Shown: positions 40,368 to 54,697 of the stretch, one piece after another
Layout: each line of letters begins with the position of its first letter
Position numbering within the stretch: the first letter of the stretch is position 1
NCBI GenBank assembly: GCA_031406385.1
Contig: JANOHI010000012.1
Span: 7,110 to 71,109, forward strand
Direction: 5' to 3'
Length of the DNA stretch: 64,000 bases
Source of the DNA: Acidimicrobiia bacterium
Lineage (GTDB): Bacteria; Actinomycetota; Acidimicrobiia; Acidimicrobiales; JANYDT01
Translations under genes and position numbers: made by a program
The notes under the pieces: model-generated
The model's database searches: none
What the model saw: only the letters and a program-made list of their open reading frames with translations
What the model was told of the DNA's origin: nothing

Positions 40368-41708
40368 TCAGGAGGGGACGTCGAGGATGTGGTCGAGCCA
40401 GTCGTGGTAGTGCTGCACGCGGGACTCGTCAGCCGACAGAAGCGCGGTGCTGAACCCGCGTGAGCGCATCCCCCGCTGCACGTCACGGATGAGATGGATG
40501 TCCTGATCGATGGTGATGGTCATCGTCTTCCGCCCGGCGATCACGTCGTCCTGGGTGAACTCGTCGTGCTCCGGTCGAGACGGTTGTTCGAAGAGCGTCG
40601 ACGGATGCGGCGTGAACGCAACGCCGGCACGGTCGGCGACCGCTTCGCTCGGAGCGAGTCGGAATGTGAACTTGTCCCACAGACATCGACCCGGATCGGT
40701 CGGGTGCGGCCGTGCCCGCATGACCAACGCGCTGTCGGGCTGGACGGTCAGCATCATGTTCGGGAAGACGTTGTATTGCTCCACGTCGCTGAGCCGATCG
40801 TCGGACAGCGCGTCGAAGTCGAAGCCGAGCTGTGGGGCGCGCTCGCGTCGGAGCTTCTGGATGTCGTGACGGATGTCGAGCACCCGCCCGACGTAGTCCT
40901 CGGGGTCGAGTCCCCACACCTTCAGTTGCTGCGTGAGGAACGGCGTCGGCTCGTCGGGAATCGGCAGACGGGTGTTCACGGTGTGCCCGTCGATGGTCAC
41001 ACTGGAATGCCCGTTGCCGAACAGGTCGACCTGCGCGGTGGGACAGTCGAACAGGGTCTTGTGCTGCGGATGGATGTGCTCGACGTGGTACAGCTCTCCG
41101 AAGTTGTCGAACACGGCCTTCCAGTTGCAGTCGAGATGCACGGTCTGATCGCCGATGAGCGTCATCTCCTCGAGCCGGTACGGATCAACGAGCTCGGCGA
41201 CACCGGCGAGGTAGTCGCGCAGCGGCACCGCATCCGGATCCATGCACACCCACACGAGGCCGGCCCAGGTGTCGACGCGCAGCGGTTGCAGCGATCGCGT
41301 CGACCGGTCGACTCCCCCGTCGAATCGGGCATTGTCGGGAACGACGATCAGTCGCCCATCGTTGCGGTACGTCCAACCGTGATAGCCGCACTCGAAGCTC
41401 TTCGCACATCCCCGTTCACCGGTCACGAGGCGCATGCCGCGGTGCTGGCACACGTTGTACATCGCCGCGAGTTCACCGGCGTCGGTGCGCACGATCAGGA
41501 TCGACTCGTCGGCGATGTCGAACCTTGCGAACTCCCCCGGCGTGGCAACGTCGCGCTCCAAGCACGCGAAGATCCAGACGCGGTCCCAGAGCGACTCCGC
41601 CTCGCGTGACATCCACACCGGCGACACATACCGGTCGGCCGAGATCGTCACGGGCCCCCGGGGCGCGGCCTGGTGGACGATCGTTGGTCGGGCCTGCACT
41701 CTCTCCAC
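40368..41708 (-). CDS. Rieske (2Fe-2S) aromatic-ring-hydroxylating oxygenase alpha subunit
   Basis: The Rieske motif is CQHRGMRL...CGYHGWTY. The catalytic-domain His/Asp region reads YHVEHIHPQH. Confidence 0.9.
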   Translation of the reverse strand: MERVQARPTIVHQAAPRGPVTISADRYVSPVWMSREAESLWDRVWIFACLERDVATPGEFARFDIADESILIVRTDAGELAAMYNVCQHRGMRLVTGERGCAKSFECGYHGWTYRNDGRLIVVPDNARFDGGVDRSTRSLQPLRVDTWAGLVWVCMDPDAVPLRDYLAGVAELVDPYRLEEMTLIGDQTVHLDCNWKAVFDNFGELYHVEHIHPQHKTLFDCPTAQVDLFGNGHSSVTIDGHTVNTRLPIPDEPTPFLTQQLKVWGLDPEDYVGRVLDIRHDIQKLRRERAPQLGFDFDALSDDRLSDVEQYNVFPNMMLTVQPDSALVMRARPHPTDPGRCLWDKFTFRLAPSEAVADRAGVAFTPHPSTLFEQPSRPEHDEFTQDDVIAGRKTMTITIDQDIHLIRDVQRGMRSRGFSTALLSADESRVQHYHDWLDHILDVPS

Positions 41709-41767
41709 GCGCTTCCTCTCGCTTCGGTTCGGCTTACGGCTTACGGCAGCGTCGCCCTCACGAGATC

Positions 41768-41920
41768 GTGGCCGGATCGACCCCGCACCCGCAAACTACA
41801 GCAGCGTTGCTCTGCTCGATCATCACCGGACCGACGCCGCGCCAGCGAGCAACAGCAGCGCGGCTCTGCTCGATCATCACCGGATCGACGCCGCGCCGCG
41901 AGCTACAGCAGCGTTGCCTC
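41768..41920. repeat. ~54-bp tandem repeat (about 2.5-3 copies) reiterating the 3' end of ilvA
   Basis: Copies start at 41796, 41850 and 41903 (ctacagcagcg..gctctgctcgatcatcaccgga.cgacgccgcgcc..gag). The third copy contains the actual ilvA stop codon, and a partial copy lies at 41768-41795. Confidence 0.75.
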
Positions 41921-43129
41921 GAAACCCTCGGCGCGGAGGGTGTCGATCACGTTGTTGCGATGCTCGGGGTTGCGGGTCTCGAGGACCATGAGGACCTCGA
42001 CCTGATCGACACCGATCTGCACGCCGGTGCGGTGGTGCTCCACGTCGAGGACGTTGAGTCCGAGGCGGGCGATGACCGCGGTCAACGCGGCGAGCGAGCC
42101 GGGGCGGTCACGGAAGACGATCCGCAGGCGTAGATACCGGCCCGCGGCCGACAGTCCGCGCGTGACGATCGAGGTGAGCAGCATCGGATCGACGTTGCCG
42201 CCCGACAGCACCACCACCGCCGGGTGGGCACCGCTGATCCTGCCGGCCAGCAGAGCCGCCAGGCCGACCGCACCGGAAGGCTCGACAACGGCCTTGGCCC
42301 GCTCCATGAGGAACAGCACAGCCTCGGCGATCTCGTCCTCCGTCACGGTGATCACGTCGTCGACGAGCGTTCGGGTCATTTCGAAGGTGATGTCGCCGGG
42401 CGCACGCAGCGCAATGCCGTCGGCCATCGTCGACGTGGAATCGAGGGTCACCACATGACCGGCGTCGAGCGACAGCCGCATCGACTTCGCCCCTTCCGCC
42501 TCCACCCCGACGATGGTCGCGTTCGGCATCGCATGCCGCAGCGCGAAGGCCGAGCCGGCGACCAACCCGCCACCACCGACGGGGATCAGGATCACCGGAT
42601 GGTCCGAGGCGTTGGCGGTTTCGGCATACTCCTCGGCCACTTCGACGCCGACCGTTGCTTGGCCGGCGATGATCAGCGGATCGTTGAAGGGCGGCACGAA
42701 CACCGCGCCGTGTTCCGCGGCATATGCACGCGCCAGACCGAGGCAGTCGTCGAGGCTCGGCCCGCCGATGATCACCTCAGCGCCATAGCCCTCCGTGGCC
42801 TTGAGCTTGGGCAGCGACACCGACTCGGGCATGAAGATCACCGAGCGACGGCCCGTCAGCGACGAGGCGAGAGCGACACCCTGGGCATGGTTTCCCGCTG
42901 ACGCGGCCACCACGTCGACACCCGGGTCGAGTCGGCTGATCCGGTTGTAGGCACCACGGATCTTGAACGATCCAGCCCGCTGAAGATGCTCGGGCTTCAG
43001 GTAGACCGGCCGCCCGAGGGCCCGCGACACCGCGTCGGCGAGACGTGTCGGTGTCTTGCGGATCACCCCGTCGAGTCGACGGCGCGCGTCGATGACATCG
43101 TCGTGGGTGATCGGTGAGGGGTCGTTCAT
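41903..43129 (-). CDS. ilvA: threonine ammonia-lyase (threonine dehydratase) with C-terminal ACT-like domain
   Basis: 408 aa. It carries the PLP-Lys block LQRAGSFKIRGAYN and a glycine-rich loop PVGGGGLVAG. Confidence 0.9.
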   Translation of the reverse strand: MNDPSPITHDDVIDARRRLDGVIRKTPTRLADAVSRALGRPVYLKPEHLQRAGSFKIRGAYNRISRLDPGVDVVAASAGNHAQGVALASSLTGRRSVIFMPESVSLPKLKATEGYGAEVIIGGPSLDDCLGLARAYAAEHGAVFVPPFNDPLIIAGQATVGVEVAEEYAETANASDHPVILIPVGGGGLVAGSAFALRHAMPNATIVGVEAEGAKSMRLSLDAGHVVTLDSTSTMADGIALRAPGDITFEMTRTLVDDVITVTEDEIAEAVLFLMERAKAVVEPSGAVGLAALLAGRISGAHPAVVVLSGGNVDPMLLTSIVTRGLSAAGRYLRLRIVFRDRPGSLAALTAVIARLGLNVLDVEHHRTGVQIGVDQVEVLMVLETRNPEHRNNVIDTLRAEGFEATLL

Positions 43130-43144
43130 GGTGAGCGAAGCGCT

Positions 43145-44377
43145 TCAGCCGAGGACAACGCCGGGAGGAAGGTCGGCGAGCAGAGCGTCGCTGATCCACA
43201 TCTCGGTGAGGTGCAACGTCGAGCGGATCCGGACGACGCGTTTCGGTTCGTGGACCGGTCGGCCGCACATCGAAAGCGCAGCTTTGATCGCGTCTTCCCC
43301 GGTGGGCAGCGCCATCGGCATGCGCGAACGACGAACGCCCGCGGGGCCGGCGGTGAAGCAATTGATGTAGGTCTTGTGCCAATCGACCTTGGCGGCGACC
43401 TCGGTGGTGATGAAGTCGGCGAGACCAATACCCAACGCGTTGCCGTGGCCCCCGTCGGTGAGGCCGAGCGCCACGATGGTCGCCGTTGTCGACTGACCAT
43501 CGAGCCCGTTGACCCAGTAGCGGCCCGTGACGTTCGGGTCCATCATCACGCCGCTGATGTCCTTGCCGATCTCGTTGATGATGAGCACATCGATCGGTTC
43601 GAACGCCAAGCGAGTCACGTGCGTCTTGGCAAGATCGGTGAGGGCGATCTCGCGCGCCGCGCCGATCTCCGATCCGAGCAGGGCCTCGGCCACGACAACG
43701 TCACCGGCGGCGTTCTCGATACTGGCGAATCCACCGAGGAGTCGACCGGTGGTCCGATGCGCGACGATACCGTCGATGATCATCTGACGCATCACCTCGG
43801 GGCCGGACGCATGGATCTGAGCAGCGCCGGGCTGCTTGCCGAATCCGACCACGCACATCTTCGACAGTCCGCTCTCCAGCGGACCGGTGAAGCACGTGTG
43901 CGGCTTGATCCGATTGACCGGAAAGAAGTGGTCGGCACCGGCGGCATGGCGGTCGAGGAACATCGGAACACCGCCGGGCGTGCGGGCCACTTCGACGGTC
44001 TCCATCGTCGCCCGGATGGGTGCGCCCACGGCGTCCTCGGTGATCCCGTAGCCGGTCAGCACTTCGAGCTGTCCCTCGGCCGTCCCACCGCCATGGCTGC
44101 CCATCGCTGGGACGATGAACGGATCGGCGCCTACGGAGCGAAGCCCCTCGATCACGCCGGCGAGCATCTCGACGCGGGCCGTGAGACCACGACTGCCGGC
44201 ACCCACCGCCACGGTTGCTCCGGGGCGGACCACGCCGTCGAAGCGAGCCTTGACGGACGCGGCGGCAGCGGATCGCACGTCGTCGATCGGCACGCCGAAA
44301 GCAGCCGGGAGCACGACCCGGTGGAGTTCGGGGATCGTCAGGTCAGGGTGGAACGGGAGCTTCACACCGCGAAGCAT
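43145..44377 (-). CDS. conserved hypothetical protein (possibly LarA/DUF2088- or DUF362-like; function not assigned)
   Basis: The start is ATG at 44377 (MLRGVKLPF). The conserved-looking blocks IVPAMGSHGGGTAEGQLEVLTGYGI and VNRIKPHTCFTGPLESGLSKM are present. Family recognition is only from memory. Confidence 0.6.
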   Translation of the reverse strand: MLRGVKLPFHPDLTIPELHRVVLPAAFGVPIDDVRSAAAASVKARFDGVVRPGATVAVGAGSRGLTARVEMLAGVIEGLRSVGADPFIVPAMGSHGGGTAEGQLEVLTGYGITEDAVGAPIRATMETVEVARTPGGVPMFLDRHAAGADHFFPVNRIKPHTCFTGPLESGLSKMCVVGFGKQPGAAQIHASGPEVMRQMIIDGIVAHRTTGRLLGGFASIENAAGDVVVAEALLGSEIGAAREIALTDLAKTHVTRLAFEPIDVLIINEIGKDISGVMMDPNVTGRYWVNGLDGQSTTATIVALGLTDGGHGNALGIGLADFITTEVAAKVDWHKTYINCFTAGPAGVRRSRMPMALPTGEDAIKAALSMCGRPVHEPKRVVRIRSTLHLTEMWISDALLADLPPGVVLG

Positions 44378-44672
44378 CGCGGCGAAGTTCGCAGGATCAC
44401 TCGGCGTTGTGGGCACCTTCGCAGCGTATGCCGCTTTCGCGCTGACGACGAGGGCGAGCCGTCGGTGGCGGCTTAGCTCTCGAGGATGTCGGCGTTGCGC
44501 GTCCGGTTGGCGCCACGTTGTCGAGTTGACGACACGCTCAACCAGCCACGCAAGTCGCCAACCAACCACACAATCCGACAGTCCGAACGCCAACCCGGGC
44601 GCGAACGGCTTGGCGGAAGAACTAACCACCCGATTAGATTTCGCTCACACAACACCACCGATGGAGGACACC

Positions 44673-45197
44673 ATGGCCCGGATCGACGTACCGGAGGGCG
44701 AAGGACTCGAAGCAACCCGCATGTGGATGCTCGCTCCGCACATCGGAGCGGGGGTGGGTGCGCTCGGCAAGGCCACCTATGTGGAGAGCAGCCTGCCGAT
44801 CCGCGAGCGCGAAGTCGCCCGCATGCGGATCGCTCAGCTCAACCAATGCGTTGTTTGACTGAATACTCGAGCCGCATCGGCGATGCGGCAGGGACTCTCC
44901 GATGAGCTGTACAACGCTGTCGCCGACTACCGGACCGACGAGCGATTCACCCCCCGCGAAAAGCTGGCCATCGAGTTCGCCGAATGGTTCGCCATCGACC
45001 ACACCGCCATCGACGACGCGTTCTTCGTCCGGCTGCGCGAACTGTTCTCCGACCCCGAGGTGTTGGAGTTGACGATCACCATCGGTTACTGCGTCGGGAT
45101 CGGCCGGGCATTTCACGTGCTCGACGTCGCCCGCGACTTCGAGGTGCTGTGGAGCAAGGAACCGAAGCCGGTCGAAGCAGCGGAGCCCAGCGCGTGA
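44673..45197 (+). CDS. carboxymuconolactone decarboxylase (CMD/AhpD-like) family protein with in-frame TGA at 44856-44858 (candidate selenocysteine, CxxU)
   Basis: GGAGGA lies 4 nt upstream of ATG 44673. The two ORF-track pieces (..REVARMRIAQLNQCVV* and MRQGLSDELYNAVADY..) are in the same frame, and joined they give a 174-aa CMD-family protein. The TGA sits where the second Cys of CxxC is expected. Confidence 0.6.
44871..44889 (+). promoter_or_regulatory. SECIS-like hairpin: GCCGCATC-ggc-GATGCGGC, 12 nt downstream of the TGA
   Basis: It is a perfect 8-bp stem with a 3-nt G-rich loop. Its spacing from the UGA is comparable to bacterial SECIS elements. Confidence 0.5.
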
Positions 45198-46438
45198 GCG
45201 ATACCACGATCACCGAGCGAAACAACGGCGTCTCATACGACCCGTTCGCACCGGAGACTCTGGCCGACCCCATGGCTGCGTACGCCGAGCTGCGCGAGAA
45301 GTGCCCCGTCCACCGGTTCGAAGACTTCACCCCCTCGTTCGCCACGATCACGCGCTACGACGATGTCGTCGCCGTGCTCAAGGACACGGCGCAGTGGAGC
45401 AGCCGCTACGGACAGACGCCGCAGTTCACCCGCGGCACCGGGCTGAACCAGGACCCGCCCGACCACACGGAGTTCCGCAAGCTCTTCCAGAAGGGCTTCA
45501 CGCCGCGCATGATCGGTCGCCTCGACGATGAGGTGCACGAGCTGGCCGTCGCTCTGGTCGACGACATGGCGGCCGTTGCGAAGCGTCGCGGCGATCTTCA
45601 CGATCTCCTCGCCTGCCCGCTCCCGGTGATCGTTATCGCCAAACTGCTCGGTGTCCCGCCGACCGAGCTCGTGCAGTTCAAGCAGTGGTCCGACGATCTC
45701 GTCGCGTGCTTCAACAATCCCGATCCACGCGCGCCCGACAAGATCCGGGCCGAGCTCAACGCCTACTTCCAAGGGTTCATCGACGATCGACGCGCCCTGC
45801 TGGCAGCGGCCGGCGTCGACGAGCCGGACGAATCACACCTCGGCACGGTCGTGCCGAACGACCTCATCGGCGGCTTCGTGGTCGCGACCTATCAAGGCCG
45901 ACGGCTCAGCGACCCGGAACTCCATCAGGTGCTCATCCAGCTCCTCGCCGGCGGCAACGAGACCACCACCTCGCTCATCACGAACTGCGTCCTCCGCCTG
46001 TTGGAGGACCGCACTCGCTGGGAGGCGCTTTGCGCCGACCCATCGCTGGTCGACACGGCGCTCGAGGAGAGCCTCCGCTTCGACCCACCGGTTCTGGGCT
46101 TGTTCCGCACGAACAACGAAGCGGTGGAGATGCACGGCGTGTGCCTTGGCGAGAAGACCAAGGTCATGGTCACCTACGCCTCGGCGAACCGTGATGCGTC
46201 GGTGTTCTCCGACCCCGACACGTTCCGCCTCGATCGTCCCGCGGAAGAACTGCGCCGTCACCTGTCCTTCGGTCTCGGTCACCACTACTGCCCGGGCGCG
46301 TCGCTGTCGCGGCTCGAAGCACGCACTGCACTGCGTCTACTTGTCGAACGCTTCCCCGACCTCCGGCTCGATGGTGCACCGGTGCGCATTGCCCCGTTCA
46401 ACCTGTGGGGACGTCGCTCGCTCCCCGTGGCATGGTGA
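45194..46438 (+). CDS. cytochrome P450
   Basis: The GTG start overlaps the upstream stop (GTGA 45194-45197). It carries the EXXR block and the heme-binding FGLGHHYCPGASLS. Confidence 0.9.
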   Translation: MSDTTITERNNGVSYDPFAPETLADPMAAYAELREKCPVHRFEDFTPSFATITRYDDVVAVLKDTAQWSSRYGQTPQFTRGTGLNQDPPDHTEFRKLFQKGFTPRMIGRLDDEVHELAVALVDDMAAVAKRRGDLHDLLACPLPVIVIAKLLGVPPTELVQFKQWSDDLVACFNNPDPRAPDKIRAELNAYFQGFIDDRRALLAAAGVDEPDESHLGTVVPNDLIGGFVVATYQGRRLSDPELHQVLIQLLAGGNETTTSLITNCVLRLLEDRTRWEALCADPSLVDTALEESLRFDPPVLGLFRTNNEAVEMHGVCLGEKTKVMVTYASANRDASVFSDPDTFRLDRPAEELRRHLSFGLGHHYCPGASLSRLEARTALRLLVERFPDLRLDGAPVRIAPFNLWGRRSLPVAW

Positions 46439-46443
46439 TCCCC

Positions 46444-46827
46444 ATGGAACAACTCACTCCTCTCGAAACCGTCCGGGCCTTCATCGCCGCCATCGAGCGA
46501 CGAGACATCGAAGCCGCCCTCGTCTTTGTCGACGAGCACTGCGAATACGACAACGTGCCCATGGGCAAGAACTTCGGCCGCGAATCGATCGGCAAGGTGC
46601 TCGGCCCGTTCATCACTGGTTGTTCCGAGGTCGAGTGGGTCACCCATCGTGAGGCGGCCACAGGGCCGATCGTGTGCAACGAACGGACCGACCGGTTCCG
46701 TCTCCCCCACGGCTGGGTGGAGATGCCAGTGACGGGAGTCTGGGAGGTACACGATGGCCTCATCACCTTGTGGCGCGACTACTTCGATGCCGCAACGTTC
46801 ACGTCGCAGATGCCGGGGCGGTCGTGA
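46444..46827 (+). CDS. limonene-1,2-epoxide hydrolase / SnoaL-like (NTF2 fold) protein
   Basis: LETVRAFIAAIERRDIEAAL..NERTDRF..VTGVWEVHDGLITLWRDYFD matches the LEH-family pattern. An alternative start lies at 46432. Confidence 0.75.
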   Translation: MEQLTPLETVRAFIAAIERRDIEAALVFVDEHCEYDNVPMGKNFGRESIGKVLGPFITGCSEVEWVTHREAATGPIVCNERTDRFRLPHGWVEMPVTGVWEVHDGLITLWRDYFDAATFTSQMPGRS

Positions 46828-47279
46828 CGGCTGTTGCTGCTGCGCTGTACGCCGAACGACTCGGCCATGCTCCCGACGTCGCCGCCACACTCGACGCAGC
46901 CTGGGATGCGGCCTGGTCGTCGGTCGACCCGTGCCTGCTCGAGCTCTGCCGACTCGAGATCGCCACGATTCTGCGCAACCCCGCAGAGTTCGAGTCGCGC
47001 ACACCGGCGGCGATCGCCGCCGGTTTCGACGACCGCAAGGTCGCCGCACTCGCATCGTGGATGCGCTCTCCGATGATCACCGCGGCGGAGCAGGCATGCC
47101 TGGCCTTCACCGACGCCTTCGTCATCGACGTTGCGTCGCTGCCGGATGAGACCGCGGCCGCCGTTCGCGAACACCTGGGTGACGCCGGACTCGTCGACTT
47201 CGCATCTGCGCTGCTCGTGCTCGAACAGCGCCAGCGGCTCGCCCTCGTGTGGACATCGTTGTTCGCGCGGGCGTCATGA
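46824..47279 (+). CDS. CMD/AhpD-like family paralogue without the CxxC/CxxU motif
   Basis: The GTG start overlaps the upstream stop (GTGA 46824-46827). LLELCRLEIATILRNPAEF..ITAAEQACLAFTDAFV resembles the CMD fold but lacks redox Cys residues. Confidence 0.6.
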   Translation: MTAVAAALYAERLGHAPDVAATLDAAWDAAWSSVDPCLLELCRLEIATILRNPAEFESRTPAAIAAGFDDRKVAALASWMRSPMITAAEQACLAFTDAFVIDVASLPDETAAAVREHLGDAGLVDFASALLVLEQRQRLALVWTSLFARAS

Positions 47280-53230: not shown

Positions 53231-54697
53231 TCAGGTGCTCCGACGAAGGTGCAGCCACAGCGAACGGATCGCCCCGAGCCCGATCGGGGCGAGTGAGACG
53301 CCGTCGATGTCTTTGGGCATGCGGTCCACGTCGATGCGCATCTCGTAGCCCCGTCGGGCCATCGTCTCGGAGAGAACCTTCGAACCGACCACCGTCTCCT
53401 GCTGGGAGATCCACGCGCCGGGACACAGGTGCGGGCCGACACCGAACGCCATATGACTGGCGCGGCCGTCCTTGCGGTACCCGCTGCGCAGGATCTTGCC
53501 GGTGTAGAGATCGCGTCGGCTGATGTCGAATCGCTCCGGTTCAGCGAATACGCGATCGTCGTGGTTGGCGGAGAAGTCGACCATCTGCATCAGTGAGCCG
53601 GCCGGGACCCGCACGCCGTGCATCTCGAGATCGAAGCTGTTGTGACGGGGTTGGCCTCCGATCGACGACGAGTGTCGAAGCATCTCGTGGAACGCCGCGT
53701 CCCACAGAGATTCGTCAGCGCGCAGACCTTCGTATTGATCGAGATTGGTGAGCAGGAGATACCACAGGTTCATGATCGCACCCCGGGTCGTCTCCCCACC
53801 GCCACCGACGATGAGCGCGATGTTGGACGTGATCTCCTCGGTTGACAGCAGATCTCCGTCGACCCGGCTGGCACAGAGCTCGGAGATGATGTCGGGGCCG
53901 ATCGGGTCGCCGTTGTCGTCGAGAAGCATCGTCGGACGCGCCCGACGTTCGGCGACAAGGCTCTCGACGAAGTCCTCAAGGTCTTGACGGGCCTCGATAC
54001 CGCGGTGCGCCGACTCGGAGCCGCCGAGGCCGTTCATCATCGACGAGTACCAGTAGAAGAACTGCGAACGTGCCTCGTCCGGAAAGCCGAGCACCTGGCA
54101 GACAACGCGGATCGGGAACTCGTTGGCAAAACCGGCGCCCAGCTCGACGGAGAACTCGCGCGTCGAGTCGTTGGGGTCGGCCGGCACGACCGCTCCATCG
54201 GGCGCCGTGCCGGAGGTCCAGGTGTCGATCATCTCAGCGGCCAGGCGTTCGATGACGCCAAGTCGGCGGTCCAGTGCTTTGCCGATGAGGTGGCGTCCAT
54301 AGAGGTTGCGGCGACGGCGATGCTCGATCCCCGAGAGCTCCAACTGCGTGTTCCCGAGCACACCCGAAGACATGCCCTTCGGAATCGTGTTGAACCCTTC
54401 CTCGTCCATGTAGCACGCCGTGATGTCGTCGTAGCGGGTGACCCAGTAGGCGTTGTGCAGGGGATCGTGGAAGACCGGATAGTGATCGCGCAAGATCCGG
54501 TAGTACGGGTACGGGTTGCGCTGGAACTCCGCGGAGTCGAAGATCCGGGGATCAACGAGTGGGACGCCGTTCGCATCGGTGCCCATGTCACACGGCTGCC
54601 CCAGGGGCATGAGGGGGAACTGCACGCGGGTGTCGGAAAACGCGTCGTCGAGGCCGAGGGCGTCGTCGAGGACGTTGCGGAACGGGCATGCACTCAT
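53231..54697 (-). CDS. cytochrome P450
   Basis: 488 aa with the heme-binding block MAFGVGPHLCPGAWIS. Confidence 0.9.
   Translation of the reverse strand: MSACPFRNVLDDALGLDDAFSDTRVQFPLMPLGQPCDMGTDANGVPLVDPRIFDSAEFQRNPYPYYRILRDHYPVFHDPLHNAYWVTRYDDITACYMDEEGFNTIPKGMSSGVLGNTQLELSGIEHRRRRNLYGRHLIGKALDRRLGVIERLAAEMIDTWTSGTAPDGAVVPADPNDSTREFSVELGAGFANEFPIRVVCQVLGFPDEARSQFFYWYSSMMNGLGGSESAHRGIEARQDLEDFVESLVAERRARPTMLLDDNGDPIGPDIISELCASRVDGDLLSTEEITSNIALIVGGGGETTRGAIMNLWYLLLTNLDQYEGLRADESLWDAAFHEMLRHSSSIGGQPRHNSFDLEMHGVRVPAGSLMQMVDFSANHDDRVFAEPERFDISRRDLYTGKILRSGYRKDGRASHMAFGVGPHLCPGAWISQQETVVGSKVLSETMARRGYEMRIDVDRMPKDIDGVSLAPIGLGAIRSLWLHLRRST

Follow-up and report, generated by a model that had tools for sequence, protein, structure and literature searches.

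The open reading frame at 44673-45197 is, with high probability, a single gene that encodes a small redox protein and in which an internal TGA is read as selenocysteine (Sec). This gene (the CMD-Sec gene) lies in a 64-kb stretch of DNA from an Acidimicrobiia bacterium, all of which was analysed and is referred to below as the window. The original prediction of a CxxU selenoprotein candidate at this place is supported by the distribution of TGA and Cys codons among orthologues, by a covarying hairpin downstream of the TGA and by purifying selection on both halves of the frame.

An interrupted reading frame and its product

The frame running from the ATG at 44673 to the TGA at 45195-97 contains a single interruption, the TGA at 44856-58, which is found in the context RMRIAQLNQ-C-V-V-[TGA]-LNTRAASAMRQGLSDE. 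The original prediction had described two fragments in one frame, split by this TGA alone, and when the coordinates were re-read, all of them matched. The N-terminus of the product, MARIDVP, is kept in homologues. The coordinates of the gene, of its main features and of its neighbours are collected in Table 1.

Table 1. Positions in the window of the predicted selenoprotein gene, its features and neighbouring genes
Feature	Position	Strand	Remark
Rieske ring-hydroxylating oxygenase alpha subunit	40368-41708	-	Upstream of CMD-Sec
PLP plus ACT enzyme (PALP)	41903-43129	-	Upstream of CMD-Sec
494-aa protein, weak Lar_N match	43145-44629	-	Upstream of CMD-Sec
Shine-Dalgarno-like GGAGG	44663-44667	+	5 nt 5' of ATG 44673; direct sequence reading
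Predicted selenoprotein ORF	44673-45197	+	174 codons including Sec62, plus terminal TGA; CMD/AhpD-like fold
Glu47 codon	44811-44813	+	Invariant; equivalent of relay Glu36 of PA0269
Cys59 codon (TGC)	44847-44849	+	First residue of CxxU
In-frame TGA, predicted selenocysteine codon (Sec62)	44856-44858	+	Aligned with second Cys of CxxC
Arg66 codon	44868-44870	+	Invariant in subfamily; at AhpD/PA0269 relay His position
Predicted bacterial SECIS hairpin	44871-44889	+	8-bp stem GCCGCATC/GATGCGGC, loop GGC, 12 nt after UGA
Cytochrome P450 gene	45194-46438	+	GTG start overlaps selenoprotein stop (GTGA, 45194-97)
LEH/SnoaL_2-like gene	46432-46827	+	Directly after CMD-Sec gene in most Sec-form loci
Second, weak CMD-like gene, C-x4-C motif	46824-47279	+	Pfam CMD 21.6 bits versus cut-off 23; last of string
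Second P450	53231-54697	-	

Gene callers converted the ORF into separate products of 61 and 104 aa. The homologues found in a protein database included full-length Cys-containing proteins of about 168 aa and many C-terminal fragments of 95-110 aa (68-100% identity), the latter publicly named CMD or alkylhydroperoxidase family proteins. The presence of these fragments in the databases is explained by the fact that gene callers stop at the TGA; the splitting by automatic annotation that had been anticipated for this gene has thus taken place. The full-length Sec form was annotated by no source in the protein collection searched. The public records examined all cut the gene into two short "proteins", so that neither the whole protein nor its active-site residue is retained.

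When a Cys was put at the position of the stop, the joined product matched the Pfam CMD model (PF02627) with 38.6 bits, the cut-off being 23. In an alignment with the AhpD-like protein PA0269 of P. aeruginosa (PDB 2o4d; E 2.7e-11), INGC-AY-C-VNMH of PA0269 paired with LNQC-VV-[TGA]-LNTR, so that the TGA was aligned with the second CxxC cysteine. None of the NCBIfam cut-offs was reached: the scores were 61.6 (cut-off 310) for NF053654, 33.1 (81.8) for TIGR01926, 14.1 (110) for NF041047 and 18.8 (233) for TIGR04030, and NF041238 gave no match with the product. The fold was modelled on the closest Cys orthologue, P0001, which is 72% identical, and not on the Sec protein itself. The AlphaFold model of P0001 (pLDDT 88, pTM 0.83) superimposed on the AhpD-like structures of PA0269, Atu0492 and D. 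radiodurans AhpD with TM values of 0.68-0.87; by way of this orthologue, an all-helical AhpD-like fold is predicted for the CMD-Sec protein.

The relay of PA0269 is formed by Glu36, Cys48, Tyr50, Cys51 and His55, and both Cys and the His have been called invariant in AhpD-like proteins (PMC3141380). The equivalent residues of the CMD-Sec protein are Glu47, Cys59, Val61, Sec62 and Arg66, respectively. In an alignment of 49 family members, Glu47, Cys59, position 62 and Arg66 were invariant. The complete Glu...Cys-x-x-Cys...His relay is not found in the family, which keeps Glu and the first Cys and has Sec or Cys at the position of the second Cys, Arg at that of the His and Val at that of the Tyr. 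Since Arg66 takes the place of the relay His in Sec and Cys forms alike, a mechanism unlike that of classical AhpD is probable for the subfamily. The original prediction had recognised a CMD-family block; its CxxC-type character, with TGA at the second Cys, stands, and the motif itself is refined to C-x-x-U-x-x-x-R, with an invariant Arg for the relay His.

Codon 62 and the downstream hairpin among orthologues

A scan with one genome per species yielded 64 loci, of which 63 could be scored at codon 62; the other (L064, 30% identity, titled Chloroflexia) does not have the motif that locates the codon and was left out. By their titles, nearly all loci belong to metagenome-assembled genomes (MAGs) of Acidimicrobiia, Ilumatobacteraceae or unclassified Actinomycetota, and many of the source habitats are lakes, rivers or glacier-fed streams. 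Three records titled "Bifidobacterium breve" or "uncultured Bifidobacterium sp." (L022, L039 and L028) cluster with the Ilumatobacteraceae/Acidimicrobiia, and on this sequence grouping their labels are probably wrong.

Codon 62 is TGA in 53 of the 64 sequences (the window and 63 loci) and a Cys codon in the other 11 (TGC in 6, TGT in 5); TAA and TAG were never seen. This is the comparison of orthologous codons that had been proposed as a check, and it came out in favour of the prediction. The TGA forms span protein identities with the window from 99% down to 45%. That this copy could be a lone nonsense mutant, which had been named as one of two findings that would speak against a selenoprotein, is excluded by the 53 TGA forms and by a hairpin that shows constant spacing and covariation and that the Cys forms have lost. 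In a neighbour-joining tree, the Sec state was found on the deepest branches and a Cys clade (L007-L010 and L053) was nested within Sec clades; this nesting indicates a secondary replacement of Sec by Cys in that clade. The median pairwise dN/dS was 0.15 for the 60 codons 5' of the TGA and 0.24 for the part 3' of it, from which it follows that both halves are translated and selected. The codons on either side of the UGA (44853-44861 in the window and the corresponding columns of the loci) were frozen at synonymous sites, with GTT for Val at -1 in 45/45 and CTG for Leu at +1 in 38/40, which suggests a constraint on the context of the UGA that extends beyond the stem. Termination is weak at a UGA that has C as the next base.

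The perfect 8-bp hairpin with a GGC loop that the original prediction had placed twelve nucleotides past the TGA was found there on re-reading. Taken singly, this sequence is not striking: the minimum free energy of the 61-nt region was unexceptional when compared with shuffles (z = -0.69), in a DNA of 64.5% G+C. Perfect 8-bp hairpins with loops of 3-7 nt are found only 21 times in the 64-kb window, the chance that one begins 9-16 nt past a given point is P ~0.003, and 3 of the 801 TGA triplets in the window have such a hairpin. The decisive case against chance is provided by the comparison of the orthologous sequences.

All TGA forms have the stem in an identical register, with no indels and a constant spacer of 12 nt; it has 8 bp in most of them and 7 bp in L059 and L062. 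Among 39 distinct sequences, 99% of the cells were paired and compensatory double changes were observed in 7 of the 8 pairs, the stem variants including GCCGCATC/GATGCGGC, GCTGCATC/GATGCAGC, ATTGCGTC/GACGCAAT and GCTGTGC/GCACAGC. These covariation values were matched by 0 of 500 shuffles, and sliding the register by 1-3 nt destroyed the pairing. Synonymous sites were frozen exactly under the stem (TCG for Ser in 47/47, GCG for Ala in 45/45); at a distance of a few codons, four-fold sites showed an entropy of 1.4-2.2 bits. Cys forms that have the same RAASAM peptide encode it with different codons, and the hairpin is absent from them. A decayed remnant, GCGGCATC-GGC-GATGCAAC, was seen in one Cys form (TGC; L051:62-130), which from its sequence looks like a recent conversion of Sec to Cys.

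The apical loop has 3 nt (GGC or GUU) in most sequences and 5 nt in two distant members (the loops seen being GGC, GUU, AGUUG and AGUUC), and a G is always present at its first or second position. An apical-loop G is a highlighted feature of bacterial SECIS elements (PMC1088965). The hairpin therefore has what is looked for in such an element, namely a stem-loop just past the UGA, a G in the loop and covariation. Rfam was scanned at gathering as well as permissive thresholds, and no SECIS, tRNA-Sec or other RNA match was obtained at the site. These scans are uninformative for bacterial SECIS elements, as the Rfam SECIS models similarly gave no significant hits in Actinomarinales genomes with predicted selenoproteins (bioRxiv 10.64898/2026.04.03.716425).

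Selenocysteine machinery and alternative explanations

The search for selA, selB, selD and tRNA-Sec was negative in the 64-kb window and in the approximately 0.9 Mb of the 64 loci, which amount to about 20 kb per genome and a small part of each. The tblastn probes were E. coli SelA, SelB and SelD sequences validated against NCBIfam (621-921 bits). Their lone match in the window and loci, a 622-aa ORF in L061, was judged by its sequence to be TypA/BipA-like. ARAGORN detected no tRNA in the window and, in 60 loci, only tRNA-Ser and tRNA-Val. The genes selA, selB, selC and selD are reported in all 84 complete genomes of Actinomarinales, another order of the Acidimicrobiia (bioRxiv 10.64898/2026.04.03.716425). 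An enrichment of selA and selB has also been reported for bins of sponge symbionts from various phyla; the bins of that study included Acidimicrobiia, the bins that carry the genes being unspecified. The literature that we searched contained no description of selenocysteine use in Ilumatobacteraceae.

All in-frame TGAs in about 1 Mb were screened as well; out-of-frame noise dominated, and no second credible selenoprotein emerged. When we scanned for a TGA followed after 9-16 nt by a hairpin in a coding frame, we recovered the CMD-Sec family and five unrelated sites, which are probably in antisense frames. At position 2569 (+) of both L023 and L025, a TGA and, 14 nt past it, an 8-bp hairpin lie in a frame with high GC3 (EANTMMMR*PFFRSTPP) and without a redox motif; this site is probably an antisense-frame artefact.

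We considered the possibility that the TGA marks a pseudogene or an assembly error, i.e. that an ordinary CxxC CMD gene carries a lone nonsense mutation or a base-calling error. Such an origin would fit with the splitting of the ORF by gene callers and with the unremarkable single-sequence folding energy. Yet the same TGA is present in 53 independently assembled species-level sequences, never as TAA or TAG, purifying selection acts on both halves and the downstream hairpin covaries, all of which makes a defective gene or sequence extremely improbable. Still harder to credit is a genome-wide reassignment of TGA to a sense codon. The in-frame TGA would by itself be compatible with it, but TGA ends 25 of the 34 crudely called genes of the window, including the ORF under study (45195-97).

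Another possibility was that the gene is truly split: translation would stop at the TGA and restart at the ATG at 44883, the 61-aa and 104-aa products would assemble as subunits, and the hairpin would serve coupling or regulation. An in-frame ATG nine codons past the TGA is indeed conserved, and the 104-aa product is listed in databases. However, the Met is equally conserved in the uninterrupted Cys forms, which argues that it is structural, and these forms share length and architecture with the interrupted ones. The interval between TGA and ATG does not contain a Shine-Dalgarno motif, and the ATG sits within the 3' arm of the stem. Moreover, the stop is always TGA and always on the column of the catalytic Cys, so that a split would delete the active-site residue. 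We consider two cooperating subunits to be highly unlikely. Finally, the UGA could be read through in a non-canonical manner, by a near-cognate tRNA or a Cys-tRNA and with stimulation by the hairpin, in genomes devoid of Sec machinery. The failure to find this machinery in the window and in approximately 0.9 Mb of loci is in line with such a mechanism, though the search covered only a small fraction of each genome and related Acidimicrobiia possess selA, selB, selC and selD (bioRxiv 10.64898/2026.04.03.716425). Furthermore, the spacing, the stem length and the apical-loop G fit the rules for bacterial SECIS elements (PMC1088965), and the interchange of Sec and Cys at a redox Cys is the classic signature of a selenoprotein. 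Readthrough of this kind is thus also very unlikely, and recoding of the UGA as selenocysteine is the reading that we retain.

Possible role and comparison with known systems

The region around the CMD-Sec gene comprises many genes of oxidative metabolism (40368-44629 and 53231-54697). The gene heads a string with overlapping stops and starts that continues with the P450, the LEH/SnoaL_2-like and the weak CMD-like genes. The P450 gene is found between the CMD-Sec and LEH genes in the window's own clade only (L001-L006). The LEH-like gene is the conserved neighbour across the lineage, and most Ilumatobacteraceae loci have it directly 3' of the Sec gene; it is missing from the Cys-form loci. No ahpC was found among the nine neighbouring genes scanned, so the context does not support a role in AhpC recycling. 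A role in small-molecule oxidative metabolism would be a reasonable conjecture.

Beyond what is shown, namely the signature of recoding, the fold and the conserved residues, we infer that Sec is actually inserted, and we propose a substrate and a functional link to the neighbouring genes as follows. The ORF would be translated into one AhpD-like thiol/selenol oxidoreductase of about 174 residues, the UGA at 44856-58 being recoded as selenocysteine. When the ribosome reaches the UGA, the hairpin at 44871-89 would act as a bacterial SECIS and recruit SelB-GTP-Sec-tRNA(Sec), which would outcompete RF2. With Sec62 in place of the second Cys of CxxC, a C59-x-x-U62 redox pair would result. In M. tuberculosis AhpD, the second Cys of CxxC is the residue that attacks. 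Homology with AhpD and PA0269 suggests that the target of Sec62 would be an oxidised substrate or partner, i.e. a peroxide, or a sulfenate or disulfide on a partner protein, and that Cys59 would then resolve the selenenyl-sulfide. Glu47 would be kept from the AhpD relay, in which the invariant Arg66 would stand for the relay His.

A more specific proposal, which we regard as rather unlikely, is that the CxxU protein is the selenium-dependent part of an uncharacterised enzyme system conserved in Acidimicrobiia of Ilumatobacteraceae type. In this system, an AhpD-fold variant with Glu, Cys, Sec and Arg in its active site would work with the LEH/SnoaL-like protein and, in the clade of the window, with the P450. 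Its substrate would be a small molecule, for instance an epoxide, a hydroperoxide or a halogenated compound, as may be compared with the CMD-fold debrominase Bmp8. If this proposal is correct, the role of the protein would be unlike the recycling of AhpC by classical AhpD, and Sec use would be widespread in the lineage and masked by annotation. The gene points to Sec use, and hence to a selenium requirement, in MAGs of Acidimicrobiia/Ilumatobacteraceae. From the clean set of Sec forms, Cys forms and SECIS elements, a covariance or HMM model could be built with which such genes would be annotated automatically. The understanding of how selenoproteins work is unchanged by these findings.

The original prediction had referred to CxxU AhpD-like selenoproteins as a recognised family, and they do form an established class (PMC1088965, PMC2398784, PMC13188914). 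They were discovered in 2005 in the Sargasso Sea data, with 27 sequences belonging to COG2128, next to a separate CxxU family with a CMD domain in the same data (PMC1088965). In the GOS data, AhpD-like 1 (299 sequences) and AhpD-like 2 (PF02627; 70 sequences) were among the most abundant families, and AhpD-like 2 was commoner in non-marine samples (PMC2398784). A 2026 review lists at least five CxxU families of AhpD/CMD type (PMC13188914). The CMD-Sec protein shares with AhpD-like 1 and 2 the CMD/AhpD fold, Sec as the second residue of C-x-x-U, a SECIS with an apical-loop G, widespread Cys homologues and a function presumed to be redox (PMC1088965, PMC2398784, PMC13188914). By the descriptions of these families, it is set apart from them as an Acidimicrobiia/Ilumatobacteraceae subfamily with an invariant Arg and usually an LEH-like neighbour. 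Homologues at JGI are named "alkylhydroperoxidase family enzyme" and, going by this name only, resemble the COG2128 label. The novelty is therefore modest: the CxxU AhpD-like class has been known since 2005, and what distinguishes the present case is the Arg that stands for the relay His, the usual LEH-like partner and the clean record of Sec forms, Cys forms and SECIS elements.

PA0269 (2o4d, 2ijc and 7xw1) is the best match in both sequence and structure, and its Glu and CxxC are on the same two helices as those of the CMD-Sec protein. PA0269 has been demonstrated to act as a weak thiol-dependent peroxidase (PMC3141380). The two proteins differ in that PA0269 has Cys-Ala-Tyr-Cys...His and the CMD-Sec protein Cys-Val-Val-Sec...Arg; the latter is also about 25 residues longer, and the identity is approximately 23-25%. 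The best NCBIfam matches, namely the YciW-related family NF053654, the peroxidase-related family TIGR01926 and the GSU3128 (seleno)protein family NF041047, all belong to the CMD superfamily and have CxxU members, but the CMD-Sec protein falls outside these three families, its scores being far under their cut-offs. M. tuberculosis AhpD is associated with ahpC, in contrast with the CMD-Sec gene, which has none beside it. As for the recoding element, the SECIS of E. coli fdhF is a stem-loop located within the coding sequence about 11-12 nt past the UGA, with a G in its apical loop. The predicted SECIS described here differs from it in its perfect 8 bp, its shorter loop of 3 nt and the lack of an evident bulged U, and shares with it the position past the UGA and the apical-loop G.
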